Shown piece by piece: positions 3,816-19,263 of a stretch of DNA of 21,509 bases (its first letter is position 1; each line of letters opens with the position of its first letter). Made by a program: the position numbers and the translations under genes. The stretch comes from an uncultured archaeon (GTDB taxonomy: Archaea; Asgardarchaeota; Heimdallarchaeia; Heimdallarchaeales; Heimdallarchaeaceae): contig CAZJUB010000043.1 of assembly GCA_964549075.1 (NCBI GenBank), positions 1 through 21,509 of the forward strand, read 5' to 3'. A model generated the notes under the pieces. It ran no database searches, had not been told where the DNA came from, and saw nothing but the letters and a program-made list of their open reading frames with translations.

Positions 3816-3859
3816 GCAAAAAAACAAAGAAAGATTACGAGCTCTCATATGGGCTCGTA
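3816..3859 (-). terminator. Hairpin plus U-rich tract ending the cysQ-sat/cysC transcript
   Basis: Minus-strand RNA UACGAGCCC-AUAUGA-GAGCUCGUA (3859-3836, contains the stop codon) followed by AUCUUUCUUUGUUUUUUUGC. Confidence 0.5.
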
Positions 3860-5575
3860 TATTTTTATAGGTTGAATATAACCTAATTGTTCCATCGTGT
3901 CTAAGACCTTTTGAACACTTTCTTCAATACTTTCCTTGTCAGTTTCACAAATTACCTCAGGTGCTTGAGGTTCTTCATAAGGGTCGTCTACGCCAGTAAA
4001 ACCTTTGATTTCTCCAGCTCGAGCTTTAGCATAAAGCCCTTTAATATCTCTTGTTTCACAAATCTCAACTGGACATTTCACATATATTTCCATGAAGTTT
4101 CCTATTCTCTGCCTAATTTCTTCACGAACAGAAATGTAAGGCGCAATATTCGCCATAATGGCAATGATCCCATTGCGACTCATTAAATGGCAGACAAAAC
4201 CTACTCTTCGTATATTTTCATCTCGATCTTCTTTGCTGAAACCAAGTCCTTTGCTTAAGTTTTGCCTGATAATATCTGCATCCAATCTTTCGACTTGATA
4301 ACCACGTTTTTTTAATTCTTCAGCTACTGCTTTAGAGATTGTTGTTTTTCCTGATCCTGACAAACCTGTAAAGAGCATTGTCACTCCTTTTTGTTCAATG
4401 AATTTGTGTTTGTTATTAGCAGAATCAATCAAAATCATAGCTACTTCTGGTCTAGTAAACTCACGTGGAAGCATTTCATTGTTTTCTAACATTTCTCTGA
4501 CTTTTGTTCCAGAGAGAAAGACATGTGATTCTTTTGAGTGAGGACATGTGCGTTTTGTGACCATTTGTTCACATAATTTGCAGTAAAAAGCGTGCTCAAA
4601 TTTTAAAGGAGTAATAGCTAGTTCTTCTTTAGTAAATTGATCGAAAATCTCTTGGGCATCATATGTGCCATAATAATTACCTACTCCAGCATGATCACGT
4701 CCAATGATTATATGCGAGCAACCATAATTTTGCCTGCTGATAGCGTGTAATATGGCTTCTTTTGGTCCAGCATACCTCATATTTGCGGGGTATACACCTA
4801 AAAATGTTCTATCCTTAGGATAATAGTTGTTTAGGATAACTCTATAGGTTTCCATTCTAACATGATGAGGAATATCATCTTTCTTTGTCTCTCCAACTAG
4901 CGGATTTACAAACAAACCATCAACTATCTCTAAAGCTATTTTTTGGAGATGTTCATGAGCTCTGTGGATAGGATTGCGAGTCTGAAATGCTACAACAGTT
5001 TTCCAATTTTTCGAGTGAAATATTTCTCTTGTCATCTTTGGAGTATATCTATACTCATTGAAGAGCTTATGTGGGAAATCCTCGAAAATTATAATCTCTC
5101 CACCTAAGTATATGCTTCCTCCTTGGTAAACTACTGCTACGCCTGGATGCTCACTATCAGAAGTTCCGAAAACACTCTCTACTTCTTCTTTCTTATCAGG
5201 AGTGTAAATACTTGATATCTTGAGAATAGCCATGTGAGTGTCATGCCAAGTTAGAGCAATTTCATCACCAACTTCTATCTTTGAAGCAAAATCCTCATCT
5301 ACTTGAAATGTGATTGGAATAGGCCAGACTATTCCATTTTTGAGTCTCATATCTTTAATAATGCTATAGTACTCTTCTTCCTCTGCAAATCCTTTTAGAG
5401 GAGAATAAATCCCTGTTGCGATACACTCAAGATCAGCTAGTTCTCTTTCAGTTAATTCTCTTTTTATTAGAGTTTTAGCTTTCTCAAGGAGATTATAACG
5501 TTCTTCCTCATCTACAATATACAAGTCAACTAATTCCCCACCATGAGGAGCTATTAGACTATTATTTTTAACCAT
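3845..5575 (-). CDS. sat: Bifunctional sulfate adenylyltransferase / adenylylsulfate kinase (PAPS synthetase, Sat-CysC order)
   Basis: PHGG, QTRNPIHRAH, MRYAGPKEA, GRDHAG, Zn site CKLC..CPH and SGTKVR in the Sat domain; then GLSGSGKTT P-loop, LGFSKEDR..NIRR, RDIKGLY..AR.GEI..FTG..DPYE in the APS kinase domain. ATG 5575 preferred over TTG 5590 because it has an SD-like GAGGA upstream and lies just after the cysQ stop. Confidence 0.96.
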   Translation of the reverse strand: MVKNNSLIAPHGGELVDLYIVDEEERYNLLEKAKTLIKRELTERELADLECIATGIYSPLKGFAEEEEYYSIIKDMRLKNGIVWPIPITFQVDEDFASKIEVGDEIALTWHDTHMAILKISSIYTPDKKEEVESVFGTSDSEHPGVAVVYQGGSIYLGGEIIIFEDFPHKLFNEYRYTPKMTREIFHSKNWKTVVAFQTRNPIHRAHEHLQKIALEIVDGLFVNPLVGETKKDDIPHHVRMETYRVILNNYYPKDRTFLGVYPANMRYAGPKEAILHAISRQNYGCSHIIIGRDHAGVGNYYGTYDAQEIFDQFTKEELAITPLKFEHAFYCKLCEQMVTKRTCPHSKESHVFLSGTKVREMLENNEMLPREFTRPEVAMILIDSANNKHKFIEQKGVTMLFTGLSGSGKTTISKAVAEELKKRGYQVERLDADIIRQNLSKGLGFSKEDRDENIRRVGFVCHLMSRNGIIAIMANIAPYISVREEIRQRIGNFMEIYVKCPVEICETRDIKGLYAKARAGEIKGFTGVDDPYEEPQAPEVICETDKESIEESVQKVLDTMEQLGYIQPIKIYEPI

Positions 5576-5579
5576 TTTA

Positions 5580-6368
5580 TTATTCCTCAAAACTATTTAT
5601 TATTTCAAAAATTCTATCTGAAGCTACTTTGGATGTGCCAACAATTGAATTTACTAAAGTCTCTGCTTGATTAAAAATGATGCCATGACCATGCTTATCT
5701 GTCACAACTCCTCCTGCTTCTTCTAAGACAAGCTTCCCCGCACAGATGTCCCACTCATTTTTTGGAGAAAGACTAAAAGTTGCATCAGCTCGTCCAGAAG
5801 CTACTAAAGCAAGTTTATAAGCAATTGATCCAGTTGGAATGATTTTAGCGATTTTCTTGAAGTATTCCCATTCACCACGTTTGTTTTCCGATCTACTTGC
5901 TACGATTACAGGTTTATTGTTGATAGTACTTTTTACAATAATTCTTTTGCCATTTAGAAATGCACCTTTGTCTTTAATAGCTGTAAAAAGCTCATCCTTC
6001 AAAGGGTTCATTATAGCACCTAGTACAGGTTCTCCATCATAAACTAGTGCAACAGAGATTGAGTATTCGGGAATGTTTTCAATAAATTCTTTAGTACCAT
6101 CGACGGGATCAACTATCCAAACTTTCTTTTTTGTTAATCTTTCTGGATTATCCTTTGTTTCTTCAGAAAGCCAACCACTATCAGGGAAGGCAGTTAAAAG
6201 CTCTTCTTGTAAGATTGTGTTTACTATAAGATCAGCTGTAGTAACTGGATCATGATTTTCTTTAAAGGACTTTTCATAACCGTTTTTTATTACATCAAGC
6301 AAAGCAAGATTAGCTTTTTTAACGGCATTACAGAGAATTTGATACTCCTTATCTAACAATTTTATCAC
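5580..6368 (-). CDS. cysQ: 3'(2'),5'-bisphosphate nucleotidase (PAP phosphatase), inositol monophosphatase superfamily
   Basis: DPVTTAD, LSEE, WIVDPVDGTKEF, SRS, GS, EWDICAG motifs; directly upstream of sat/cysC. Start uncertain (GTG 6395, GTG 6368 or TTG 6359); the TATA box at 6413-6405 favours the later starts. Confidence 0.88.
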   Translation of the reverse strand: MIKLLDKEYQILCNAVKKANLALLDVIKNGYEKSFKENHDPVTTADLIVNTILQEELLTAFPDSGWLSEETKDNPERLTKKKVWIVDPVDGTKEFIENIPEYSISVALVYDGEPVLGAIMNPLKDELFTAIKDKGAFLNGKRIIVKSTINNKPVIVASRSENKRGEWEYFKKIAKIIPTGSIAYKLALVASGRADATFSLSPKNEWDICAGKLVLEEAGGVVTDKHGHGIIFNQAETLVNSIVGTSKVASDRIFEIINSFEE

Positions 6369-6404
6369 ACGTACTACAGCTACAACATTTCGCACTAAAC
6401 AAGT

Positions 6405-6413
6405 TATTTAAAA
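6405..6413 (-). promoter_or_regulatory. TATA box for the cysQ-sat/cysC operon
   Basis: Minus-strand TTTTAAATA, the same core as 3111-3119, in the short gap after the methyltransferase stop. Confidence 0.5.
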
Positions 6414-6427
6414 TGTTCCATGTAACG

Positions 6428-8284
6428 TTAAACAATTGAAAGCAACTGGAAAATAGAGTATTCATCGATTTCCTTTTTATCTCTAATATTTTGATTTTGT
6501 TTCAAATAGAATTCTTCTAAGAACGATTCTTGAGCTTTTGTAAGATCTATGATAAATCTCTCAAGTAAGAAATCCATATCAACTTGAGCTAAAGCTCTTC
6601 CTTTCTCCATACTGAGAATATGATAAACCTTGTTAAACTCTATAGAATTGAGTTGTGTAGAAATAGCATAAAGATTCAAATCTTGGTTTTTCGGAGAAAT
6701 AGTATGACAGTTGTTTAGATGATAATATCCCTTATTATCAACAGCGGAAATGATTTTGTAACCAGTTTGTCTAAGAATGATTTTAGGGCTCTCAACGATA
6801 TCCTCATCAAAACCTCCTGACCAGAGAATTGAAGGAGTTATGTTTATCCAATCGTTTTGATATTCGATATGAAAAGGTTGTATTTGACTACTAGAAACAA
6901 GTCCTTGCTTCCAGTTTTCTCCTATTTTCTCCTTTCTCACAATATTCCTCTGTCCGATCCTTGCTCTAACTCCAGTATGCATAGTTACTAACTCATCAAG
7001 CTTTTTCTTCGCTTTTTGTCTCCATTCCTCTACATATTTTTTATCTTGTAAATTAAAATACAAATGAAATCGTTTGTAATTATTTTCTAGAAAACCTGTT
7101 TGGGAATTAAGATATTCTTCCCATTCTCCTTTGGTAAAAGAAGTGAGAGAAGATATCCATCGTGCAGGAAATGATACTTCAGAAACAGTTGAGTCAGTTT
7201 TACAGATTTTACTCAGAAATGTAATGATTGGTCTCCCTAAAGTAACTCCTTGGAAAGGTTCGAATCCTAAAAGAGAGATGTCTAGAAAATCTGAGTTTTC
7301 AAGAATATAAGTCCGTAACTTAGAGTAATATCTCCCAAGTAGATGAGAATCAGGAGTGATTATACCTAAAATACCGTTATGTGCAAGAAGTTCAAGTGAA
7401 CGTTCTATGAAAATAGGATAGAGACTTAATTTGTATTCAGCAGAAAAGAATCTGTTTCTAAGAAAGTGTTTGAATTCGGGGTGGTATTTTTGAGCATCTC
7501 GAAGACCATAAGACATGTAAGGAGGATTGGAAACAATGATGTCAAATATACAAGATTTTCTCTCAGTCAACATTTCTATGGGTTTAAAAGCTGGAGTTGA
7601 TGAAACCTTTTGTAATGAAAAATCATCTAACAAAGAATTTCCAACACAAAGATTCTTATCAACATCTGGCAAATCCAAATCGGGGAAAAAGAATGACGAG
7701 AAGAGTAACATTCTCATTTTGTGAATAAAAAGAGCAAAAGAGTCAAGATCAAAGGCAAAAATGTTTTTGGAAATGAAAGAAAGAAAAGTTTCCTTCTTCT
7801 TAGTTGAATCAAGTTTAAGCTGATCTTTTAATAAGTAAAGAAAAGTAATAAGTAGATTTCCTGTACCAGCTGCTATATCAGCAATTTTTATGTTTCTAAA
7901 AATAGGTTCTATGTCTGGAAAGTTATTCTTCAAGAGATAATAGTCTAAAGATTTCTTCGCAATAAACTCGGAGATGTAGGAAGGTGTAAAAAACTGACCA
8001 AGCTTCTTATTAGAAATCAATTCTCTATTAAAAAAAGAGAGATGAAAAGGAGTAAGATGAGTTTTTGACTGTGTCTCATCTAAGCTTAAAGAAGGAAAAG
8101 TTGTTTCAGAAAAATCTTGGAGGTTAAATTTCTTCATTCTTTTGTGAGGAAAATGATTAGCATATTGTAAGAGCTGAGTTGGATGGTTAGATTCTTGTAT
8201 TAACAGGGAAAGTAAGGAGTACCAAAAGTCATCTGTTAATTCTAGATTCCTAAAAGGATAAAGAAATGGTTCTCTGTTACTCAA
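6428..8284 (-). CDS. N6-adenine DNA methyltransferase, gamma class (M.TaqI/Eco57I-like) with C-terminal target-recognition domain; apparently orphan
   Basis: Motif X GQFFTP, motif I DIAAGTGNLL, AFDLD, GNSL, motif IV IVSNPPY, FIERSLELL..NGILGIITP, TaqI-C-like KIILRQTG. TTG start. Confidence 0.9.
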   Translation of the reverse strand: MSNREPFLYPFRNLELTDDFWYSLLSLLIQESNHPTQLLQYANHFPHKRMKKFNLQDFSETTFPSLSLDETQSKTHLTPFHLSFFNRELISNKKLGQFFTPSYISEFIAKKSLDYYLLKNNFPDIEPIFRNIKIADIAAGTGNLLITFLYLLKDQLKLDSTKKKETFLSFISKNIFAFDLDSFALFIHKMRMLLFSSFFFPDLDLPDVDKNLCVGNSLLDDFSLQKVSSTPAFKPIEMLTERKSCIFDIIVSNPPYMSYGLRDAQKYHPEFKHFLRNRFFSAEYKLSLYPIFIERSLELLAHNGILGIITPDSHLLGRYYSKLRTYILENSDFLDISLLGFEPFQGVTLGRPIITFLSKICKTDSTVSEVSFPARWISSLTSFTKGEWEEYLNSQTGFLENNYKRFHLYFNLQDKKYVEEWRQKAKKKLDELVTMHTGVRARIGQRNIVRKEKIGENWKQGLVSSSQIQPFHIEYQNDWINITPSILWSGGFDEDIVESPKIILRQTGYKIISAVDNKGYYHLNNCHTISPKNQDLNLYAISTQLNSIEFNKVYHILSMEKGRALAQVDMDFLLERFIIDLTKAQESFLEEFYLKQNQNIRDKKEIDEYSIFQLLSIV

Positions 8285-8406
8285 TACAATAAGTAGAGTT
8301 GAAGAAAATAAAAATCTTCCTCATTATTTTTCTTGAGTATTTCATAGATTTGAGTTCTCTTGCAAAGTCGTTGCTGAAACCAAAGAGCGAAAAATTGGTA
8401 AAGAAA

Positions 8407-8441
8407 ATCTTACCACGTGAAAAAAATTTGTGTGGTAAGAT
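8407..8441 (+). repeat. Perfect 10-bp inverted repeat, extendable to a 15-bp RNA stem
   Basis: ATCTTACCAC (8407-8416) / GTGGTAAGAT (8432-8441). The inner GTGAA/TTTGT adds 3 G:U and 2 A:U pairs around an A5 loop on the plus strand. Confidence 0.75.
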
Positions 8442-8647
8442 AGAAAAATCCAACTTGGTTACGATACTTTAAGCATATATTGTCCAGGTATTGTGGAGAA
8501 AATACCTTTTAGTTTCACTTTCAAAAATAGCTGAAAGTAACGACATAAAGCCATGAAATTTGATTTCGTAACAGCTGTTTTGTTCACTTTCAATGAGGTC
8601 TCTGTGCCATTATAAGGGATTGAAGACACTTTTTTAATTAGAGACAA

Positions 8648-9580
8648 ATGTCAACAATGAAAACTTTACAAGAAACATTGACTTGTGTCGATTGCGGTGG
8701 TACTGAGTTCAGCTATGATATCAGACGTGGAGACGTCGTTTGCCGACGATGTGGAATCGTTGCTGAAAAAATTTTCGAAGGGAGCCATTTTCTCGATCGC
8801 TCAGAAGATGCTCGAACAGGCAGTCCAGAAAGTCGTAGAAGTCATAGTACAAGCTTCAGAGTAAATGAAGCTCATGTAGAAAAACGACCAAAGTATAGAA
8901 GAATGTATCAGGCAGAGAATTCTCAATATTCGGCGATAGAAGAAAATAAAGCAAGAATACTTACAATTCTAACACGTTTAGGTTTATCTGAGCATACACG
9001 CAATGATCTAATGTATGAGCTCAACAAGATATATGCGAGTGAGAAGAGAAAAGGGAATAAAATAACTAATATTTTTCTTGTGACTGCAGCTTTAACTATC
9101 AAGTATTTGAAAAACAAAGGAATTCCTTGTTCTATCAACGATATTGTGGCACTTTTCAAAGAACATCATTGTAAACTCTCTTCCAAGGCTGTTAGAGACT
9201 ATATCTTAGACTCCAATATGAACTATACAACCAGTCCAGCAAAATCCTTTGTTCCTAAGTATTTGGCAGAACTCAAAGAGATTGAATCTTTCAAAGAGAG
9301 GTTAGAAAATATTCACCCTGAAGATGAATTAGGATATGAAAAATTAACAACTACGATTCAACGTTTGGCTACAAAACTTTGCGATCTCAAGGTAAATGGC
9401 CGCAAACCCTCTGTATTTGCGGTTTCCTGCATTTTCTTATCAATTAATATGGTTGGGAAACGATTTATTGGCGAACCTCTTATTACCAAAGAAGAGATTT
9501 CTCGTTTCTTAGGTACTCCATCCACTACTCTTCGTGAACATGTTCGTTACGTTCAAGATAATTTACGAATAAATCTATAG
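8648..9580 (+). CDS. Divergent transcription initiation factor IIB (TFB)-family protein
   Basis: Zn ribbon CVDC-x15-CRRC with YD..RGDVVC..CG.V, B-reader remnant RTGSP, two cyclin-like repeats, GRKPSVFA and C-terminal HTH ITKEEISRFLGTPSTTLR. Confidence 0.82.
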   Translation: MSTMKTLQETLTCVDCGGTEFSYDIRRGDVVCRRCGIVAEKIFEGSHFLDRSEDARTGSPESRRSHSTSFRVNEAHVEKRPKYRRMYQAENSQYSAIEENKARILTILTRLGLSEHTRNDLMYELNKIYASEKRKGNKITNIFLVTAALTIKYLKNKGIPCSINDIVALFKEHHCKLSSKAVRDYILDSNMNYTTSPAKSFVPKYLAELKEIESFKERLENIHPEDELGYEKLTTTIQRLATKLCDLKVNGRKPSVFAVSCIFLSINMVGKRFIGEPLITKEEISRFLGTPSTTLREHVRYVQDNLRINL

Positions 9581-9633
9581 TTTCCTTCTTTCCCTTTCCT
9601 TTCCCTTCCCTTCCCTTCCCTTCCCTTCTTTTT
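9581..9633. repeat. 53-nt pure pyrimidine tract with (TTCCC)5 core; probable terminator region of the TFB-like gene
   Basis: Only C and T from 9581 to 9633, beginning right after TAG 9578-9580; perfect TTCCC units at 9601-9625. Confidence 0.9.
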
Positions 9634-9698
9634 ACTAACACAAATTTAAAGAACTCTTTTCTTATTATGTAATTGTATAATATCTATAATGATTCCCT

Positions 9699-11624
9699 AT
9701 GACTATCTCCAAATCTGAACAGAAGAAATTCCTAAAAGACCTTAAAGCTAAACATTCAATCACACGTCTTGACGCTCTTCACGACCTAAAAAAACATGAT
9801 CTTGATGCTATTTTTGCTCTTGATACTCTTATTGAACTTGTGAAAGAAGATGATGATGATATGGTCAGGTTCAATAGTTTGGACATTCTGTCCGTTCTAG
9901 CTGGAGAATCTGAAATAGCGCTTAAAGCTATTCAAGAAGCTGCAGCTTCAGATCATTTGGGAGTCAGCAGGAAAGCAACTCGACTTTTATCAAAAATTAA
10001 AACTGTTTTAGAAGAGATTCTTGTACCAGAAGAACAACCAGAACCAGAAGAAGAGATGGAACCTCTCTCTGATGAGTTATTCGAAAGAATAGAGACTCCT
10101 ATAGCTGCAGAAACTAGCACCTCTCCTCCTGTTGCTCCAGCTGTTCCACAACCAGCGTCTTTTCAAACAACTACAGATGAGCAATTTGATGAAAGTGAAT
10201 ATGGTGAAGAAGCTCCAGAACTGTCTCCAAGATTAGTTGAAGAAGATATTAGTAATATTCCTATGCCAAGTTCCAGCCCTCCTCCTGTTCCTTCTGCGCC
10301 TTCCATTCCTTCAGCAGGACCTATGCCAAGAGCTGAAGACACAATCGTACCTGAACCTCAGCAAGAACCTAAGAAAAAACAAGAATTAGAGTTAGATGAT
10401 GTCACTGATTCTCCTATCCAAACCACTTATACAAATTTGAAGATTCTGATTGAAAGTCTTAAAGAAGAAGGGCAAGACGAAGAAATTTTGTTCTATACTA
10501 TGACTATGTTTAATGAATCGATGGATTTCTTGAAAGATCATCTGGTTGAGCTTATTGGTATAGAAGAAGAGATGGACTGGCCAAAATTTATGGATTACAA
10601 ATTTGAGCCAGAAGAAGAAAAAACTTTGCGCGATCTTATTTCTATGGTAGCAGGAGTACTTAGAGATGGTAAGGTAGAGTTTTCGAAAATTGAAACTTTG
10701 AATTTTTTTGGAACAATGGCTCAGAAATTTGAAATGATTGAAGAGACAATTGTATTCTATGTAGCTGTCGTAGGGAAAGATCAACAGAATCTTATCGCTA
10801 TTTATAATCTCGGACTTTTATACGCCAAAATTGGCAATATGGATGAAGCAATTCAACAGTTTCAGAACATCTTAGAATTCGAACCTAATAACACAAATAC
10901 ACTTTCCAAGCTAGGGGATATCTATCTGCACAGAAGAAACGACTATAAGCTTGCATCAGATTATTACAAAAAAGTGTTAGAAGTTGATAATAAGGATGTT
11001 GTGACAGGCTTAAAATTAGCAGCAGCATTAAGTAAAGCAAGTGAATTTGATGAAGCTACCTCAGTTATAATTAAACTTCTAGGTGTAGATGAATCTAATC
11101 CTGATTTATGGCTGAATTATGCTGTTTTACTTGTAAAACAAGTTCATTTTGAAGAAGCTCTTGATGCCTACAACAAAGCTTTAGATATTGCACCAAAAAA
11201 TTGGGATTTCAGAGAAAAAGCTGAGAACGAAAAGGCTAGAGTTGAACAGATTATCAATGCGCCTGAATATGCAGAAACAGATGATGAAAGTTTACACTAT
11301 ATGGTAGATGAAGAACGAAAAATAAAAGTAAGTAAACTCTTTATTTTTGCACAGGAACCTGTAGACGACGAAGTTTTTATGGCTATTTTTGATTGGTTCA
11401 AAAAGACTAAAGAAAAATATAATGTTCCAGATGACTTAGTACCTAAATATGGCAGTATTATTGATAAAGAACAATTCCCAATAGATCCGCTTAGAGCACA
11501 AGGATTTGCAGAATCGATTTTTACAGAACAGTTTAATAAAGAACTCGATTTATCAAAATTCCATCATGAGTTATATGATTTAGAAGGATACGGTAAAATC
11601 ATTGTTTTTATGGAAGAAGCTTAG
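9699..11624 (+). CDS. HEAT-repeat / acidic Pro-rich linker / TPR-repeat protein
   Basis: N-terminal HEAT-like units (RLDALHDL, DDDMVRFNSLDIL, VSRKATRLL), low-complexity E/P-rich region at about aa 108-240, and TPRs (AIYNLGLLYAKIGNMDEAIQQFQNILEFEP, LWLNYAVLL....FEEALDAYNKALDIAP). Confidence 0.85.
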   Translation: MTISKSEQKKFLKDLKAKHSITRLDALHDLKKHDLDAIFALDTLIELVKEDDDDMVRFNSLDILSVLAGESEIALKAIQEAAASDHLGVSRKATRLLSKIKTVLEEILVPEEQPEPEEEMEPLSDELFERIETPIAAETSTSPPVAPAVPQPASFQTTTDEQFDESEYGEEAPELSPRLVEEDISNIPMPSSSPPPVPSAPSIPSAGPMPRAEDTIVPEPQQEPKKKQELELDDVTDSPIQTTYTNLKILIESLKEEGQDEEILFYTMTMFNESMDFLKDHLVELIGIEEEMDWPKFMDYKFEPEEEKTLRDLISMVAGVLRDGKVEFSKIETLNFFGTMAQKFEMIEETIVFYVAVVGKDQQNLIAIYNLGLLYAKIGNMDEAIQQFQNILEFEPNNTNTLSKLGDIYLHRRNDYKLASDYYKKVLEVDNKDVVTGLKLAAALSKASEFDEATSVIIKLLGVDESNPDLWLNYAVLLVKQVHFEEALDAYNKALDIAPKNWDFREKAENEKARVEQIINAPEYAETDDESLHYMVDEERKIKVSKLFIFAQEPVDDEVFMAIFDWFKKTKEKYNVPDDLVPKYGSIIDKEQFPIDPLRAQGFAESIFTEQFNKELDLSKFHHELYDLEGYGKIIVFMEEA

Positions 11625-11663
11625 AAATCTCTTCTCATTCTACTTGCAAAAACAAGATTTTAA

Positions 11664-14600
11664 TTAAGTAGCAATGCTCATACTTTTGCGTTTTTTTAGC
11701 GTTTTTATTACCTGGCTTACAACCATTACAGAACAAGCAAATATTAAAGAGAAAGAGGTTTTTTCAGAAGATATTGCTAGAACATCTATTAGAACAGTAT
11801 CTTCTATACTATTCCCAAATAGATCAAACAGAACAAGAGTAACATTAACAGTTCCTTCATGCGAAATTTCATAAGGATATATTATTTCTGGATCATTTCG
11901 CCATGGATATGAAAAAACTAGGCTATTATCAACATAGATTGAATAGTTCCATGGTGTCGCGTCATGAACTTCCCATATTAGTTCAACAAAAGAATTATTT
12001 TCTCCAACCGATAGATCTTCAAGAGGAACAATTTCAGGAGGATCATCTTCTTCAGTCAGAATCCTATAATGAATCGCTTCAATTGCATCTACTTGTATAT
12101 TCGCCCCAGAGCTATAAACAATCTGAATATAGCGAGCTTTGTTGAATCTTATGTTACCTAAATCAAAGCTTTCGTTCCCTACACCACTTTCTAGAAAATC
12201 AAAGAAAACTGAAGGATCGTTACTGACTCTTACATTATAAACTCCGCCAGTAGCAATTATCCAAAAATCATCTCCATCCAGGTTCAATATTTCTTCACCT
12301 TCACCCATATCAAGTGTGATGAATCCATTACTATAAGATGATGTAATAGTGGTATACTCGTTATCAGCTGGTCCTACAGAAGCTTGACCATTAAAATAGA
12401 AGAATGAATCATCCTGCAAAAAATCATCTCCATATGGATCTCCAAATTCTAGAAGAACAGAAATCCATTGCTCATAGACAATTGAATGACCTCCAGCATC
12501 TTCAATAAAAAGAGTGACATTATAAATCCCTGGAAACCAGTTTGTTGTCCACCAATCTTGGATATTTACTCTGATATATTTAGAATAAAATAATTGTTCG
12601 AAAATAAGACTGTCATTTCTGTAGAGGTAAAAAGCTGAACCTCCGTGTATCTCCCATCGCAGAATAGCTGGAATTCCCCAATATAGAGTGTTTTGTGGAG
12701 TTTCAACAAAGATGGGAACAGCTGGGGAGTAAATATGTAAAAAAGATACTGATTCATTTACTAGCATGTTTTGATCAAAAGCTTTGAACTTAATTTCATA
12801 GTATCCTTCATCGAGAAGTGGTGTTTCAATCTCAAATGCTTGAGTTGTATTTTCCCATTTGAATGTTGTGAGAATATCATTATCTAAATATATCTCTACA
12901 TAATTTGGAAGAGCATCATAAATAGACCAGGATAAAATTGAAGTTTTATTCCACTCTAAGTCGATATCTTCAGCTATTAAGTAAAAATAAGGTGCTTCAA
13001 GAGGATATATGGAAACATTAAAATTATCATTGAACACAGAAAGACTTTGGTTAAAAATCTGAAATTCAACAAGGTGGACTCCAATACTAAGAGAGTTCAA
13101 ATCCAGGATAATGTTTTCTCCTATCCAAGAATCAGCTAAGCGTAAAAATCCATCAATCGTTATATTAAATGATAAAGGAGAGATAGTAACACCTGCCCAA
13201 GTAATATTTGAATTAATCTGTCCTAGTTCAATTCGAGTAGGACCATTTCTTTTGATGAGAAAATTTTGAATAGAAATTGAGACTTCACTTGTTGAAATAT
13301 GACCTTCATTATCAGACAAAACCAATGTTAAATTATAATATCCTGCACTCAGTTTCCCTAAATTTGTATTTAAATATGAAGGTTTCCAGAATTTATCAAA
13401 TACATGAAATCCACTTTGTACAACACTATTGTTGAGATAAATTGTGTAAGTTCCTTGAATATCAGATTCTGTTTTAAAGTTGTATGCCACTTTCCAAGAT
13501 ACTTCAACATCATCTTTTGGAGTAAGAAGAACGTCTTCAGATTCAAAAATTGTAGGTTTATAGTTAAATCTTTGAGCTCTATAAATACCATAAGAATAAT
13601 ATTGACTTACCCAATCATAATTCAACTCCCAAATTAGCTCTCCTTCTCTATTAACTTCAACAAGTCTCGCACCAATCTCTGATTCAGCGTGACTAGGAGT
13701 TCCAAACACACCAAAGAAATTTCCATTAGGAAGTAAATCAGCATTACCCCAATAACCACTCCAATAACTTCTTGGAGCTTCCCAAGTGAATGATTCATTA
13801 GCAACCAAGTTGACATCATCAATTACAAGTTCAACGATTCTGGAAGTTCTTGAATAGGAATCTGTCTGGTTATGTCGATCATTATCAAATAGAATAAAAG
13901 TATTATCAGCTATTCTTTCTATTGAATGAGCGTGGTAGAATAGATTATCCATTATAATTCCATGTTTATTATATAGAGTGAAATCTCCATATTCTCCTAA
14001 GGACCAAATGATATTTTTTGTAGAATAATCTATCTTATAAAAAGTGTTCAAGTTTCTAGAATTGTAATAGATTATATCTTCTTCTTCATCATAAAATATG
14101 GTATTACCATGAGTTACATCAATTTTATATTGTCCTTCATAATCTATGAACGGACAGTAATTCTGGATACCAATTATATCATAGGTATCAAGCGACCAAA
14201 TAAGATTTGAGTTTAAATCATACTCATTAATTAAATCTGTCATAAATAATTTTCCGTCAATCTCCCTCTCTCTTTGTTCAAGAACAAAAATTGTGTCTCT
14301 TGTTGAAACATATTCAAGTTCATGGTGCCCATAAAATCCGAGTTTAACAGTAACTCCTGTTTCAAAATTCCAAAGTGTTGCATAAGGATCTCCATAAAGA
14401 ACTGTTGTGGAATTAATCATCTCAGCAGAACATGAAGTTAAGCTTTCACCTAAAGAAATCAAAAAGTTTGAATCAATCTCTTTATAGGCTATTATAGTAC
14501 CATTTAAATCTGAAATCGCAACCATTGTTGAAACTCCTTTACCTGTAATAAAACTACGTTTTTCCATAGTAAATAAGATTAAACTATCATAAGGTTCTCC

Positions 14601-14855
14601 ATAATAATACACGTTAACACACCTATTATCATAGAAGTTATTGAGTTGATTTACTTGTTCAACAGGTGCAATAGTGTTTTTAACTGAAGGACTATTATCT
14701 GTTTGCGGGACGAAGTTTGTATTTTTTGAATTTGTAACTAGATTCGTAAGAGAATTCACATTTGTATAAATCAAGAAGTTACAGAAAAGGAGCATCATAA
14801 AACTGGTTTTTATAATCCTTCTGAAACTCCGCCAACCTCTCTTAGATTTATACAT
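11664..14855 (-). CDS. Exported, C-terminally anchored aryl-sulfate sulfotransferase (ASST) with Ig-like stalk and lectin-like module
   Basis: N-terminal signal-like segment; ASST motifs GHHE, DVTHGN, NSRN, HAHS, FDND, G.AD.LPNGN; about four Ig-like units, a galactose-binding-like module, a last Ig unit, then a hydrophobic segment and basic tail; about 19 N-x-S/T sequons. Confidence 0.8.
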   Translation of the reverse strand: MYKSKRGWRSFRRIIKTSFMMLLFCNFLIYTNVNSLTNLVTNSKNTNFVPQTDNSPSVKNTIAPVEQVNQLNNFYDNRCVNVYYYGEPYDSLILFTMEKRSFITGKGVSTMVAISDLNGTIIAYKEIDSNFLISLGESLTSCSAEMINSTTVLYGDPYATLWNFETGVTVKLGFYGHHELEYVSTRDTIFVLEQREREIDGKLFMTDLINEYDLNSNLIWSLDTYDIIGIQNYCPFIDYEGQYKIDVTHGNTIFYDEEEDIIYYNSRNLNTFYKIDYSTKNIIWSLGEYGDFTLYNKHGIIMDNLFYHAHSIERIADNTFILFDNDRHNQTDSYSRTSRIVELVIDDVNLVANESFTWEAPRSYWSGYWGNADLLPNGNFFGVFGTPSHAESEIGARLVEVNREGELIWELNYDWVSQYYSYGIYRAQRFNYKPTIFESEDVLLTPKDDVEVSWKVAYNFKTESDIQGTYTIYLNNSVVQSGFHVFDKFWKPSYLNTNLGKLSAGYYNLTLVLSDNEGHISTSEVSISIQNFLIKRNGPTRIELGQINSNITWAGVTISPLSFNITIDGFLRLADSWIGENIILDLNSLSIGVHLVEFQIFNQSLSVFNDNFNVSIYPLEAPYFYLIAEDIDLEWNKTSILSWSIYDALPNYVEIYLDNDILTTFKWENTTQAFEIETPLLDEGYYEIKFKAFDQNMLVNESVSFLHIYSPAVPIFVETPQNTLYWGIPAILRWEIHGGSAFYLYRNDSLIFEQLFYSKYIRVNIQDWWTTNWFPGIYNVTLFIEDAGGHSIVYEQWISVLLEFGDPYGDDFLQDDSFFYFNGQASVGPADNEYTTITSSYSNGFITLDMGEGEEILNLDGDDFWIIATGGVYNVRVSNDPSVFFDFLESGVGNESFDLGNIRFNKARYIQIVYSSGANIQVDAIEAIHYRILTEEDDPPEIVPLEDLSVGENNSFVELIWEVHDATPWNYSIYVDNSLVFSYPWRNDPEIIYPYEISHEGTVNVTLVLFDLFGNSIEDTVLIDVLAISSEKTSFSLIFACSVMVVSQVIKTLKKRKSMSIAT

Positions 14856-14929
14856 ATTTACAAGTTATGAATGCACTCTTTAAGTATTTCTTAAACAAAT
14901 AAAAATGAAAAAGAGAAGAGTTATTTTTC

Positions 14930-15802
14930 TTAATATTGCTTTCTTTGGAAAATTATTGAAATACCTACTAAGGTTATGATAGTAAATATCATAGGTAAAG
15001 CAGTTGCACCTTTAGTGTTTAAGATTTCAACAACCACCGTATCCTCTGAAGAAAAACCAAAGAAATCAGTAGCAGTTAAAGATATGTCGAGAATTTCTGG
15101 TTCTGTAATAGTATATGAAAAATGAATATTGTTTTCTAACCATTCACCTTCTTGATAAATTTCATCATTTATTTTTATAACATAACTCCAAGGATAACTT
15201 TCGGTTATTTCCCAGGTAAATTCAACAGTAGACTGATTGTTCCAAACTGAGAAATCTTCAATTGGAGTGATAACAGGTGGATCTGTTTCTGGTGTTATTG
15301 CTTCAAGATGAATAGCTTCAATAGCGTCTAGATAAACTTCACCTCCAGCAAGGTATTGAATTTGAACATATTGAGCATATTCTAATCCAACGTCATTGAG
15401 ATCGAAACTGGCATTATCAGAAGCGTCACCTATTGTAATTAAAGGTTGTTGAATATTATTCCCGACTTTAACATTGTAAGCTCCAGAATGGCTTATTACA
15501 GTAAAATCATCTCCTGTATCATTCCAGATTCTCTCATATAATCCCATATCATAGGTAAGGTATCCATTTCCATATTCTTTAAATAATTCAGCATATTCTG
15601 CATCTGGTGCTCCTAAAGCATTCTCACCAAAACGGAAAAAACCAGAGAGAGCATCAATCATCTCATCAGCATACGCATCAGCTGGTGGTGTATTAAATTG
15701 AATTGGATAAGTCGTATCAACACTTGCACATACAAGAGAAGGTATCAATAAAATAGATGCTATAAACATCGCAAACGTAACTTGATATACGTTTCTCTTC
15801 AT
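14930..15802 (-). CDS. Secreted membrane-anchored protein (lectin-like beta-sandwich + Ig-like), paralog of the C-terminus of the 1063-aa ASST
   Basis: Signal peptide, then LGAPD..Y, NGYLTYDMG, GDDF, YNVKV, SFDL, DAIEAIH, DPP, PW.Y and D.FG.S.EDTV motifs shared with 11778-12440, then a TM helix and basic tail. Confidence 0.8.
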   Translation of the reverse strand: MKRNVYQVTFAMFIASILLIPSLVCASVDTTYPIQFNTPPADAYADEMIDALSGFFRFGENALGAPDAEYAELFKEYGNGYLTYDMGLYERIWNDTGDDFTVISHSGAYNVKVGNNIQQPLITIGDASDNASFDLNDVGLEYAQYVQIQYLAGGEVYLDAIEAIHLEAITPETDPPVITPIEDFSVWNNQSTVEFTWEITESYPWSYVIKINDEIYQEGEWLENNIHFSYTITEPEILDISLTATDFFGFSSEDTVVVEILNTKGATALPMIFTIITLVGISIIFQRKQY

Positions 15803-15862
15803 ATGGTTTATTCACATACAATAAGTAAAAAATCTTTTCCTAAAAAATGTAAATAGAGGAAT

Positions 15863-17995
15863 TTATCCTCTTTTCAAGAATTTTGGAAGTTTATCTGTCT
15901 TCCTAAGAATAAAGTATGTTCCAACAAGTATACCAATTGTTAACACTGGTACCAAGGTCCCAACAAGTATTTTTGTTACTTGAGCAGCTTTATCTAAAAG
16001 AACCTCAACTCCTTGAACACCATCTTGATTTTCCACTACGATTGCAAGAAATTTTGCATTTGAAGGAACGTTAGTCAGAGATATGTTTAATGCATTGGAT
16101 TTAAAGAACGCATCGAAAGTAAATGTGTTTTCATAAATCACTTGCTCATCAGCAACAATCTTTATTGTACCTGAAGTATCATAATCTCTTTTGAAACAAT
16201 CCCAAGTTAGAAGATTAAGGTCTAGAGCACCACTTTCAAGATCAAGTGTACTGGATTGTATTTCAATGACTGGTTTTTCGTAAAATCTCTCAAAACTCTG
16301 GATCCAGAAATAAGTATTGTTAAAGCCATCTATCATCAGTTCCCAAGCTACCTCACCATTAGGAGTAACTTCAGTTAGATAAACTGGATCTCTGAGGTTC
16401 ATCACTTCAGCTTTATTTGCAAAAACGCCAATTGTGTTGCCGTTAGGTAAACGATTTGCATCTCCACCTGACTCAGGTAAGTAATAACTCTGGTTAGAAG
16501 GTGTCCATGACCATACCTCTTTTATTGTCCGATTTACTTCATCTATTTCGAACTCTACCATTCTTGACCAACCTAATGCTCCTTCCAGATGCATGGTCAT
16601 AGGATTACTTGTGTTATAAAGATCATTATCAAAAACGATGAATCTATTTTTTCCTATTTTTTCAAAACCATGTGGAGAATGCATTATTGCATCAACGATT
16701 TGATCATTTTTATCATAGAACGTAAAATTAGAATATCTTCCAGCTTCCCAAGTAATATTCTTAGTTGTGTAATCTATCTTTGCAATTGTATCTAGATTGC
16801 GGACATTGAGATAGATTGAACCTTCAGCTTTATCCCAGACAAAGGAGTTTGAATGCATCCAGTCGACACCGCCTGCAAAAGTTAAATTCAATCCAAACTC
16901 ATTATAGCGAGTATAATTGAAAGGGATGTAATCTTGACTATTCCATTGCCAAACTAATGTACCATTTAAATAATATTCCTTCAAATCATCATATATGACA
17001 TTTAGAGGCCAACCATCAACTTCTACAGTTTCGTTTACATTCTTATGATCTTCAAGAACCATGATAGTCTGAGTAAATGGATTATAATCTAAGCAATGAT
17101 GACCTGCAGGTATTGGTAAAGTAACCCTTACTCCTGTTTTAAAGTTCCATAATTCCAACTGTCCATTTGTTTTTCCTCCACTAATAATGGTAGTAGAATT
17201 CAAGAATTTTTGAACAGTATTTAAACTTCCTTCACCCAATCTATAAACAATCTCTCCCCTGCTGTTTACAATTAGAAGATCGCTATTAAAAATGTCAGGG
17301 ATTCCTCCATGAACCTGACCTAAATTGTATGGATCAATGGTGACTGCTACATAAGGTAATAGAGTAAGACCTTGACTATTGAATAAATCTGTATTCTCAA
17401 CTCTTAATTTAATATTATCAGATACTTCGTAAGGCGAAACATAAGTTCCCATTATGGTGGCTGCAGCTGTATCAACAAGCCAGCCAACAGCAATTACATC
17501 CTCTAGATTTCCCTCAAAAGTTAGCTTCCCAGATTGAAACGCTTGTTGAGTACTTAATTCTGCACTCAATATCTCTTTAGCCACCGCAAAAGTAATTTCA
17601 ATGTAAATGCTATATGTTGTAGGAGGTGTCGTTACTATATCAAGAGAAAGAGAGTCATTACCAATCGACAGCCAAAGATTTCCTCGATCTGTAATGTTCA
17701 ACAACACTTCCTCTTCCCAACCTTTAAGTTTCTCAAGTACATCTGGACTATTGTCTGCAACATATTGAGCGAATATCACAAAATCAGGCATATTTGACCA
17801 CTCAAATGTATTTTCATCTAATTTCTCACTTAAGTCATCCTTGATATCTAAGATATACTGAGGGGCATTAGATAAGTCAAAAGGTTTAGCTACATATGCA
17901 AATTTAAGATAAAGAAAGAAACTACCTCCTCCTGCAATTATCAACCCTAGAACAATTCCTACAGATATAAGAATTGTTTTTGTTTTCTTTTTCAT
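15863..17995 (-). CDS. SCP2 (sterol-carrier-like lipid-binding) domain-ASST fusion with N- and C-terminal TM anchors
   Basis: TM at aa ~8-30; SCP2 pattern at aa ~70-176 (EILSAELSTQQAFQSGKLTFEGNL); ASST motifs GHHC, DWMHSN, NVRN, HSPH, FDND, GDANRLPNGNT; Ig-like unit; C-terminal TM; about 14 sequons. Confidence 0.82.
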   Translation of the reverse strand: MKKKTKTILISVGIVLGLIIAGGGSFFLYLKFAYVAKPFDLSNAPQYILDIKDDLSEKLDENTFEWSNMPDFVIFAQYVADNSPDVLEKLKGWEEEVLLNITDRGNLWLSIGNDSLSLDIVTTPPTTYSIYIEITFAVAKEILSAELSTQQAFQSGKLTFEGNLEDVIAVGWLVDTAAATIMGTYVSPYEVSDNIKLRVENTDLFNSQGLTLLPYVAVTIDPYNLGQVHGGIPDIFNSDLLIVNSRGEIVYRLGEGSLNTVQKFLNSTTIISGGKTNGQLELWNFKTGVRVTLPIPAGHHCLDYNPFTQTIMVLEDHKNVNETVEVDGWPLNVIYDDLKEYYLNGTLVWQWNSQDYIPFNYTRYNEFGLNLTFAGGVDWMHSNSFVWDKAEGSIYLNVRNLDTIAKIDYTTKNITWEAGRYSNFTFYDKNDQIVDAIMHSPHGFEKIGKNRFIVFDNDLYNTSNPMTMHLEGALGWSRMVEFEIDEVNRTIKEVWSWTPSNQSYYLPESGGDANRLPNGNTIGVFANKAEVMNLRDPVYLTEVTPNGEVAWELMIDGFNNTYFWIQSFERFYEKPVIEIQSSTLDLESGALDLNLLTWDCFKRDYDTSGTIKIVADEQVIYENTFTFDAFFKSNALNISLTNVPSNAKFLAIVVENQDGVQGVEVLLDKAAQVTKILVGTLVPVLTIGILVGTYFILRKTDKLPKFLKRG

Positions 17996-18123
17996 AAGTC
18001 AAACCTACTCTCTTACAGAGACTTTTCAAGTTTTTGGTATTATTTTTGGAAAAAAAATTATAGCTGAGGAGACCTATAGCAAGTTTTTTTTATTCTTTTC
18101 TTTAGTCTAATTCGATTAGTTGT

Positions 18124-19263
18124 ATGAAGAAGAAATCCAAAGATAAAGATGGTTTACCAGAATTTACTTTTCCAGTTTCAATGTATTATTTGATGAAATT
18201 ACTAAATAAAACTAAACTTACAACAATTAAACTTGGTAATTTTGAATCAAGATTCATGAAGAAAAAGATAAACAAAATTGAGATTGAAAAACCAATCTAT
18301 GTAGTTGGGCTTGCTCGAGCTGGTACAACAGTAACTGTAGAACTGATATCTGGGCATCCAGATGTAGCTGTACACAGACATATGCATCTAATTGATCCTT
18401 TTATGCCTCAGATACTGCATAAAATCGCTAAACTACTGCCATTTATCTTTAAAAAGAAAGTAGAACGAGTACACAAAGATGGTTTGGCTGTAAATAGAGA
18501 TAGTCCTGAAGCTGTAGAAGAGATGCTATGGTTAAGATTTTTTGATAACCTTCATAATGAGAATGTCTCTAATATCAAAGATGAGAAAACATCTAATCCA
18601 AAATTTGAGAAATTCTATATTGAGAGTATCAAGAAGCTTATGATAAGTCAGAATGCTACAAGGTATGTTACTAAGAACAATTACAATATCTCCAGGATGA
18701 AGTATCTACGTAAGTTATTTCCGGATGCTAAATTTGTTCTGGTTGTTAGACATCCTGTCAACCATATTGCTTCCTACATCAAACAGGAAAGGATATTTCT
18801 AGAAATGGAGGAAACAAATAAGAAAATTAGAGATTGGATTACTATAGTTGGACATGAGGAATTTGGTACAAATAAAATTTTTATCAACCTCAATTCTCAA
18901 GAGAAGATAGATAAAATCCGTGCTCTTATCGAGAATAAAAAGACTTTCGTCAAAGGTTATGCTTTCTACTGGAACGAAATATATTCTTATGTAACAAAAC
19001 TTCTGAAAGAAGATAAGAATCTTGCTCAAAGAACCTTAATTATACGATTTGAAGATTTAACAGATAATTCTGCTGAAACTATAGATAAAATCATCAACCA
19101 TCTTGAATTAGATGAAGAAAAAGCAACAGAGTTACGAGAAAATTATATAGAAAAGCTTCATCAACCGACCTACTATAAGCCATCTTTTAGTGAAGAAGAG
19201 CTCGAAACTATTAAAGAAGAAACTTATGAGGTAGCAAAATTATACGGTTATTATTCAAACTGA
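18124..19263 (+). CDS. Cytoplasmic PAPS-dependent sulfotransferase (Sulfotransfer_3 type)
   Basis: 5'-PSB loop PIYVVGLARAGTT, K-N motif YVTKNN, LFPDAKF, 3'-PB VVRHP....AS, and IRFEDL. Confidence 0.9.
   Translation: MKKKSKDKDGLPEFTFPVSMYYLMKLLNKTKLTTIKLGNFESRFMKKKINKIEIEKPIYVVGLARAGTTVTVELISGHPDVAVHRHMHLIDPFMPQILHKIAKLLPFIFKKKVERVHKDGLAVNRDSPEAVEEMLWLRFFDNLHNENVSNIKDEKTSNPKFEKFYIESIKKLMISQNATRYVTKNNYNISRMKYLRKLFPDAKFVLVVRHPVNHIASYIKQERIFLEMEETNKKIRDWITIVGHEEFGTNKIFINLNSQEKIDKIRALIENKKTFVKGYAFYWNEIYSYVTKLLKEDKNLAQRTLIIRFEDLTDNSAETIDKIINHLELDEEKATELRENYIEKLHQPTYYKPSFSEEELETIKEETYEVAKLYGYYSN

Follow-up and report, generated by a model that had tools for sequence, protein, structure and literature searches.

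Sulfation outside the cytoplasm is known from eukaryotes, in which 3′-phosphoadenosine-5′-phosphosulfate (PAPS) is pumped by a transporter into the Golgi and used there by luminal sulfotransferases; a prokaryotic route that acts after export is largely open. For sugars, dolichol-phosphate and undecaprenyl-phosphate serve as carriers: the sugar is activated in the cytoplasm, loaded onto the lipid, flipped across the membrane and used outside, where nucleotide donors are lacking. We know of no lipid-type carrier described for sulfate. The single two-step sulfation pathway known is that of caprazamycin in Streptomyces, in which triketide pyrones are sulfated by the PAPS-dependent enzyme Cpz8 and then serve as donors for the aryl-sulfate sulfotransferase (ASST) Cpz4 (available part of PMC4257720, citing Tang et al. 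2013); Cpz4 sulfates a sugar hydroxyl, according to the available part of the review PMC13426309. Here we analyse the contig CAZJUB010000043.1 of an uncultured Heimdallarchaeaceae archaeon (21,509 nucleotides; hereafter the window, which is the entire 21.5-kb contig C43 of a 3.2-Mb genome that is 89.7% complete), on which the gene of a PAPS-dependent sulfotransferase, ST3, stands beside that of an ASST fused to an SCP2 domain, ASST710.

An initial annotation of this DNA had read positions 3845-19263 as one candidate system, in which a PAPS synthetase, a phosphatase that recycles 3′-phosphoadenosine-5′-phosphate (PAP), a cytoplasmic sulfotransferase and two exported ASSTs relay sulfate across the membrane. 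Open reading frame (ORF) calls and Pfam profile matches place every gene that it named where it had put it. The genes concerned are the following.

3845-5590, minus strand: Sat-CysC, bifunctional PAPS synthase, 581 amino acids (PUA_2; ATP-sulfurylase, 2.2e-97; APS_kinase, 3e-60)
5580-6395, minus strand: CysQ-like PAP phosphatase candidate, 271 amino acids (Inositol_P, 2.5e-57)
11664-14855, minus strand: ASST1063, an ASST paralog, 1063 amino acids (PF05935, 3.9e-17)
14930-15802, minus strand: p290, predicted exported protein with a C-terminal anchor, no Pfam family
15863-17995, minus strand: ASST710 (SCP2-ASST), 710 amino acids (PF05935, 4.7e-20; SCP2, 5.5e-7)
17996-18123: AT-rich divergent intergenic region between SCP2-ASST and ST3, 128 bp
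18124-19263, plus strand: ST3, Sulfotransfer_3 PAPS-dependent sulfotransferase, 379 amino acids (PF13469, 5.5e-24)

Conservation of the ST3/SCP2-ASST pair

Two queries, the N-terminal part of the SCP2-ASST and ST3, were searched against 400 genomes of the phylum (labels below: G, genome, with G000 the source genome; L, locus; C, contig; f, GTDB family). The former matched at 48 places in 40 genomes and the latter in 88 genomes. An ST3 gene lies on the same contig within 4.4 kb at 25 of the 48 places, and within 440 bp at 22 of these; the linked places span four families (f1, f5, f7 and f31). Among the 11 SCP2-ASST loci of the genus, ST3 is adjacent in eight, is not adjacent in one (G021:C65), and two loci are cut by contig ends; the spacing in the genus is 120-151 bp. 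The gene order is not constant, the pair being divergent in the genus, and elsewhere ST3 precedes the ASST gene or follows it, with unrelated flanks. Such varied orders among unrelated flanks argue that selection acts on the pair, rather than that synteny has been frozen, and the linkage of sulfotransferase and ASST genes to which the initial annotation pointed is thus found to extend well beyond the window. That annotation had also placed both ASSTs in one module; of the two, only the 710-residue type is consistently linked to ST3, and the 1063-residue type is no more than a candidate member.

The strongest single support for a unit that leads from PAPS through ST3 to the ASST comes from the clusters of f31, a family that belongs to a different class from the window organism. 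In L115, genes for TauE, Sat, a phosphodiesterase, CysC, Inositol_P, ST3 and SCP2-ASST follow each other on one strand, with an alpha/beta hydrolase gene on the opposite strand between the last two; in L114, ST3 and SCP2-ASST are divergent from TauE-Sat-CysC-Inositol_P-p290-like. TauE/SafE-family proteins thus head both sat-cysC-cysQ clusters (L114:3082-3864 and L115:6942-7733). The recurrent neighbours at Hod-type loci are HSP90 and a protein without a Pfam match. In a quick tree of ST3 sequences, the ASST-linked ST3s fall in one starred clade of 18 rows. Thor-type sequences form a further group in this clade; they are linked to Sat-CysC, and no ASST was matched in their fetched flanks. We consider it very likely that ST3 and SCP2-ASST work together, and this coupling is much firmer than either the carrier or the glycan acceptor considered below.

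Sequence features and PAPS supply

ST3 scores 86.1 bits against PF13469, for which the cut-off is 27. Its motifs GLARAGTT and RHPxxHIAS, which we take to be the 5′-PSB and 3′-PB, are invariant in five orthologs and align with the PAPS-binding regions of tyrosylprotein sulfotransferases; only in these regions does the ST3 profile match its best PDB sequences, tyrosylprotein sulfotransferases 1 and 2 (E = 7e-7). ST3 also bears a conserved N-terminal extension of about 50 amino acids. Topology was assessed by simple hydropathy scans rather than by dedicated predictors, and these found no membrane segments in ST3, Sat-CysC or the CysQ-like protein. The initial description of ST3 as a sulfotransferase without an export signal, divergent from the 710-residue ASST, is in keeping with this and with the 128-bp gap between genes on opposite strands. 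The other Sulfotransfer_3 paralogs of the source genome are about 23% identical to ST3; those at C13:1897-5541 and C33:1830-6816 (L021 and L023) adjoin MFS transporters and could act in small-molecule sulfation coupled to export.

The two window ASSTs match PF05935 with 72.4 and 62.8 bits (curated cut-off, 24.2), and all 13 of the 13 ASST710 orthologs match it too. In a MAFFT alignment with the ASST of Escherichia coli CFT073 (EcAST; catalytic residues as listed in the available part of PMC13426309), His252, His356, Asn358, Arg374 and His436 of EcAST correspond to H299, H381, N383, R399 and H442 of ASST710, and to H177, H249, N251, R267 and H310 of ASST1063. Both window enzymes thus keep the H/HxN/R/H set that had been ascribed to them. 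Thr501 of EcAST is not kept in this alignment, being replaced by Gly in ASST710 and its orthologs and by Trp in ASST1063. Exceptions to the catalytic set occur elsewhere: ASST704 of L042 has Ser at the Asn358 position, and a 573-residue paralog of the source genome (G000 C95:7781-9502, L017) has Ala and Asn in place of the His252 and His436 equivalents and, judged from its sequence, is probably catalytically dead.

ASST710 consists, in order, of an N-terminal segment (residues 8-26), the SCP2 domain (about 82-167), a beta-propeller, an Ig-like domain and a C-terminal segment (673-691). ASST1063 has an N-terminal hydrophobic stretch, a beta-propeller, repeats, a C-terminal p290-like domain and a membrane anchor (1035-1053). 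By hydropathy, residues 8-26 and 673-691 of ASST710 are membrane segments, and the basic tails at the two ends of the protein would place its body outside. The export of the ASSTs that was initially claimed has in its favour the N-terminal hydrophobic segment and the C-terminal anchor on both proteins, and stands as a hydropathy prediction. An N-terminal segment is likewise predicted in nine of the nine ASST paralogs of the source genome, and a C-terminal anchor in eight. ASST710 contains 14 N-x-S/T sequons versus 6.9 expected.

The SCP2 domain of ASST710 (PF02036; 30.3 bits, cut-off 21.3) is a feature absent from the initial annotation. It directly follows the N-terminal anchor and is matched by Pfam in 12 of the 13 orthologs. 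An AlphaFold2 model of ASST710 has a six-bladed beta-propeller fold and a mean predicted local distance difference test score (pLDDT) of 68; the SCP2 region is mostly below 60 and adds nothing to the Pfam call. A Foldseek search with this model finds Cpz4 (9kf4/9kf6; E = 7e-20) ahead of EcAST (about 1e-11), with template modelling (TM) scores, relative to the target, of 0.46-0.57. The same entries, 9kf4/9kf6, are the best PDB sequence match of both ASSTs (E = 8.6e-9 for ASST1063 and 5e-4 for ASST710). Sequence and model together support a Cpz4-like nature for the window ASSTs. Residues 36-250 of ASST710 have homologues in 14 proteins, whose sole informative name, given by automatic annotation, is ‘aryl-sulfate sulfotransferase’.

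The neighbouring protein p290, a homologue of the C-terminal part of ASST1063, likewise begins with a hydrophobic stretch and is anchored at its C-terminus, according to hydropathy. Its model (pLDDT 77) comprises a beta-sandwich and an Ig-like domain, and the best that a fold search finds for it are accessory beta-sandwich modules from glycoside hydrolases, to which the matches are weak and incomplete (TM score relative to the query at most 0.27). Proteins like p290 recur as neighbours of the pair but are missing from several loci.

PAPS would be supplied by Sat-CysC, which combines ATP sulfurylase and adenosine 5′-phosphosulfate (APS) kinase domains in a single chain according to Pfam, and which is the sole ATP-sulfurylase match of the source genome (one match in a PF01747 search). 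The CysQ-like gene overlaps the Sat-CysC start by 11 nt. An Inositol_P gene stands in operon context with sat-cysC genes in three lineages, and in L114 and L115 it follows cysC; the window gene is assigned to the level of the Inositol_P family, as a CysQ candidate. At these levels, the genes for PAPS synthesis and PAP recycling reported initially are present, and no APS/PAPS or sulfite reductase was found in the window, again as reported. In the source genome, at its 89.7% completeness, a search for the NIR_SIR sulfite reductase gave no match. The sole PAPS_reduct-family ORF of the genome is a fusion of PUA, PAPS_reduct and Fer4 (4Fe-4S) domains (G000 C14:31075-32919, L122) that adjoins the genes of tRNA-guanine transglycosylase (TGT) and an LSm protein, and from its domains and neighbours it looks like a tRNA- or RNA-modification type rather than a PAPS reductase. 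Because there is one Sat-CysC, no NIR_SIR match, and a sole PAPS_reduct ORF that is a PUA/Fer4 fusion beside TGT, PAPS is more likely made for sulfation than for assimilation.

Within the window, the link of Sat-CysC and the CysQ-like gene to the pair is loose, at about 12 kb with unrelated genes between. A similar distance between the pair and the Sat-CysC ortholog, about 13-14 kb, recurs in two of the four same-genus genomes searched (five in all), G001 and G007. Synteny with sat-cysC and cysQ is therefore tight in the f31 clusters but not here, and the span 3845-19263, when taken as a system, does contain the sulfation genes but is not made up of these throughout, with DNA methylase, TFIIB-like and TPR genes between its halves. 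In G007, the Sat-CysC ortholog (G007:C32:15971-17710) has one in-frame TGA, and the ST3 copy beside the second SCP2-ASST (G007:C32:4-674) has a TAA or frame break; these could be pseudogenes, cases of recoding or assembly errors. The remaining genes of the window are as follows.

2-1369, minus strand: UDP-sugar dehydrogenase (Pfam)
1490-2938: 482-residue basic protein without a Pfam match, between UDP-sugar dehydrogenase and Sat-CysC
Between the CysQ-like gene and ASST1063: Eco57I-type DNA methylase, TFIIB-like protein and TPR protein
Listed after ST3: CMP-sugar synthetase/GT28 fusion (CTP_transf_3/Glyco_tran_28_C) and NeuB

The TPR protein of the region 8648-11624, which is acidic and 641 residues long, adjoins the SCP2-ASST/p290 genes in seven genomes of the genus including the window; the loci that bear it are the window, L038, L103, L104, L105, L106, L108 and L110. 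A TFIIB-like zinc-ribbon protein accompanies it in three of these (the window, L038 and L103). In G001, a 193-residue sulfotransferase, a polysaccharide pyruvyl transferase and a Polysacc_synt flippase lie between p290 and the TPR gene (L024:14362-17842), in the slot that ASST1063 fills in the window.

Type III polyketide synthases and the proposed relay

Type III polyketide synthase (PKS) genes are rare in the survey, occurring in 22 of the 400 genomes, and 19 of the 22 also hold an SCP2-ASST. The full table comprises 19 genomes with both genes, 3 with PKS alone, 21 with SCP2-ASST alone and 357 with neither (8, 3, 1 and 13 within the genus). Fisher values for these tables are descriptive only, as kinship is ignored; related genomes are not independent, and the values therefore overstate the case. 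A PKS abuts the pair in G007 (L027/L042; gene L027:4946-6064; Chal_sti_synt_C, 4.3e-28). When aligned to 7cb3 it has GC, HPGG and GNMSS motifs, in which we presume the Cys-His-Asn triad to lie, and its solved matches in the PDB are headed by 7cb3, followed by M. tuberculosis pks18 (E = 9e-48), an enzyme that makes long-chain alkylpyrones. In G088 (L041), a PKS lies directly downstream of ST3 and a PKS remnant is found between two ASST genes as well.

There is no PKS in the window. In the source genome, a fragment of one occurs where contig C74 ends (C74:3-395), and an extra ASST is inserted 5.5 kb from it. This fragment belongs to a DUF72-type PKS locus (L029-L037; in G000, L019/L028) that also contains genes for a class-III aminotransferase and a formiminotransferase-cyclodeaminase. 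The PKS as a universal source of the carrier was considered and rejected, in view of the genomes without a PKS that are counted below.

An ASST depends on a donor whose leaving group is good, while activated sulfate has, among the linked genes, a single source: an enzyme that uses PAPS in the cytoplasm. A carrier is therefore the simplest connection between the two. We propose a two-step sulfation of the Cpz6/Cpz8/Cpz4 type that is split across the cell membrane, a scheme towards which we lean slightly. Sat-CysC would make PAPS and the CysQ-like phosphatase would clear PAP; cytoplasmic ST3 would sulfate a small lipophilic carrier, phenolic or enolic; and the sulfated carrier would move to the outer face of the membrane. 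There, the SCP2 domain behind the ASST710 anchor would take the aryl sulfate and pass it to the propeller, where His442 would be transiently sulfated before the sulfate moves to an extracytoplasmic acceptor. The other exported paralogs, such as the 1063-residue type among the nine ASSTs of the genome, would widen the range of acceptors.

The outward passage of such a carrier, phenolic or enolic and in sulfated form, and its uptake by the SCP2 domain are, in our estimate, just on the probable side, and the fusion to SCP2 fits a carrier that is lipophilic. In lineages that have a type III PKS, an alkylpyrone or alkylresorcinol would be the likeliest carrier; elsewhere it would be another compound. 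The glycocalyx as acceptor is a guess, based on the sugar preference of Cpz4 and on the weak fold hints from p290. In its broadest form, the proposal is that Heimdall-, Hod- and Thor-related Asgards export a membrane-soluble aryl sulfate with which anchored ASSTs sulfate the surface without external PAPS, and this we offer tentatively, with more doubt than confidence.

A number of points weigh against the relay. What has been observed are the genes present, their motifs, the sidedness predicted for their products, and the conservation of linkage and co-occurrence; the carrier and its export, the donor, the acceptor and each chemical step are inferred. The sidedness of both the ASSTs and ST3 is read from hydropathy only. 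Since a sulfate ester is charged, its passage calls for a flippase or exporter, and among the neighbour genes of the examined loci no exporter or transporter is conserved beside the pair; TauE in the f31 clusters could export a sulfated compound or, equally, import sulfate. At 23 of the 48 SCP2-ASST places there is no ST3 on the contig, most of these places not having been examined for contig ends. The other seven ASST paralogs of the source genome (two on C95, three on C4, and one each on C74 and C26) have no sulfation neighbours. In G044 (L046, Hod-type), ST3 and a shortened ASST of 538 residues occur with no APS kinase or Sat-CysC match, and the module may be decaying there. No PKS was matched in 21 of the 40 SCP2-ASST genomes, nor in any of the 22 genomes of f5, among them all seven with an SCP2-ASST, and in most genomes of the genus the PKS occupies a separate conserved locus beside a DUF72 gene, away from the ASST. 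Finally, in the family f20, ST3 is found in 53 of 135 genomes and SCP2-ASST in none of the 135, and the genes of a Loki-type ST3 clade of 35 rows belong to clusters for glycans or glycolipids, where the fetched flanks gave no ASST match. The ST3 family can therefore act without an ASST; the substrate of the Loki-type enzymes, to judge from their neighbours, is probably a glycan or glycolipid. The Loki-type loci (L049-L094) hold two or three B12-binding radical SAM genes and genes for GT2, a hexapeptide transferase, a LuxE-like acyl-protein synthetase, UDP-galactopyranose mutase (GLF), a polysaccharide deacetylase and an alpha/beta hydrolase.

There are multiple possible scenarios in which the same genes would have other roles. 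A sulfated phenolic lipid might itself be the end product, with the SCP2-ASST redistributing or removing its sulfate outside, as remodelling or turnover, and with no sulfation of glycans. The presence of a PKS with SCP2-ASST in 19 of 22 genomes, the lipid-binding SCP2 domain and the lack of a conserved acceptor-related gene next to the pair all suit this scenario, as does the exchange of sulfate between phenols by ASSTs (available part of PMC13426309). We nevertheless hold it to be unlikely: in the case of Cpz4, the nearest relative with a solved structure, the group sulfated is a sugar hydroxyl and not a phenol (same source), nine exported paralogs are present, some with large extra domains, and the beta-sandwich shared by p290 and the C-terminus of ASST1063 weakly resembles sugar-binding modules. 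It is also conceivable, although a shade less probable again, that the two enzymes have unrelated functions and simply inherited their synteny, ST3 sulfating glycans, lipid-linked sugars or nonulosonic-acid glycoconjugates directly within the cytoplasm and the ASSTs handling environmental aryl sulfates and phenols. Consistent with this, ST3 adjoins nonulosonic-acid genes (CTP_transf_3/Glyco_tran_28_C and NeuB) in the window and in G001, the Loki-type ST3s occur in GT2/GLF/deacetylase clusters, the Thor-type ST3 follows Sat-CysC without an ASST match in the fetched flanks, and bacterial ASSTs are thought to use exogenous donors, as stated in the available text of PMC13426309. However, it is only in the window and G001 that the pair has NeuB and the CMP-sugar gene for neighbours, NeuB being absent from 10 of the 12 ASST-bearing loci examined, whereas the adjacency of ST3 and ASST is found in four families, in differing orders and among unrelated flanks, sat-cysC-cysQ-ST3-ASST clusters occur in f31, and a PKS has been recruited beside the pair in two genomes.

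Two further scenarios appear to us far less probable than these. ST3 might work as tyrosylprotein sulfotransferases do, with p290 or another exported protein as its substrate, so that a sulfotyrosine peptide or protein is the carrier. The best PDB matches of ST3 are indeed tyrosylprotein sulfotransferases, p290-like proteins recur by the pair, and tyrosine peptides are ASST substrates (PMC13426309, in the part available), but the match is weak and confined to cofactor motifs, p290 is missing from several loci, and the SCP2 domain and the link to PKS point to a lipid; we regard this as very improbable. The least probable scenario is a reversal of the whole pathway for salvage, in which the ASST loads environmental aryl sulfate onto a lipid phenol that flips inward, and ST3 runs backwards to regenerate PAPS from PAP. 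In vitro, aryl sulfates can serve aryl sulfotransferases for the regeneration of PAPS. The reactions of ASSTs are described as reversible ping-pong transfers in the available part of PMC13426309; against this scenario, the occurrence of Sat, CysC and a PAP phosphatase in the same clusters argues for de novo synthesis of PAPS and removal of PAP.

Comparison with known systems

A literature search on ASSTs, sulfation relays and type III PKS-ASST links in Asgards found none, and no description was found of an ST3/ASST pairing, an SCP2-ASST fusion or a trans-membrane sulfate relay, many subscription journals being outside the search. This accords with the initial statement that no archaeal system of such design has been described. 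What is new here is the setting: a known principle, two-step sulfation, appears in a new cellular context and a new domain of life, and the organisms concerned are the closest archaeal relatives of eukaryotes.

The Asgard ASSTs resemble the periplasmic ASST of E. coli (3ELQ) in the beta-propeller, in five of the six active-site residues and, as predicted here, in an extracytoplasmic location. They differ from it in sequence (about 13-15% identity), in not keeping Thr501 and in having no DsbL/DsbI partner. Bacterial enzymes of this type are soluble, have no linked PAPS-dependent partner and are presumed to use exogenous donors, whereas the Asgard proteins are predicted to be membrane-anchored and are fused to SCP2. 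The conserved pairing of a PAPS enzyme inside with an ASST outside that has a predicted lipid-binding domain offers ASSTs, few of whose bacterial members have an established natural donor, a candidate for an endogenous one.

The parallels to caprazamycin, with its type III PKS Cpz6, Cpz8 and Cpz4, are closer, and the precedent of Cpz8 and Cpz4 cited in the initial annotation agrees with the available parts of the citing paper (PMC4257720) and the review (PMC13426309). Both systems show genetic coupling between a sulfotransferase that depends on PAPS and an ASST that does not; no solved structure is closer to the window ASSTs than Cpz4; and a type III PKS is adjacent in two relatives and co-occurs genome-wide. 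The comparison of ST3 with Cpz8, like that of the PKS with Cpz6, concerns their roles. In contrast to Cpz4, the Asgard ASSTs are predicted to lie outside, anchored at both ends and fused to SCP2; the Asgard pair does not lie in an antibiotic cluster and its hosts are archaea; and roughly half of the genomes that have the pair lack a PKS, as does the window. If the relay is confirmed, it would extend the one known two-step pathway to a general mechanism of the cell surface. It also points to what the type III PKSs, rare in archaea, may do.

The proposed relay shares with Golgi sulfation the use, outside the cytoplasm, of sulfate from PAPS made within it, but it would involve neither a PAPS transporter nor a luminal PAPS-dependent enzyme, the external transfer being independent of PAPS. 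The logic of the relay is instead that of the dolichol-phosphate and undecaprenyl-phosphate sugars, with the difference that the cargo would be sulfate on a phenolic ester rather than a sugar on a polyprenyl phosphate. We suggest that an aryl sulfate carrier, if such is indeed the donor of the SCP2-ASSTs, would be the sulfate counterpart of the dolichol-phosphate sugars.

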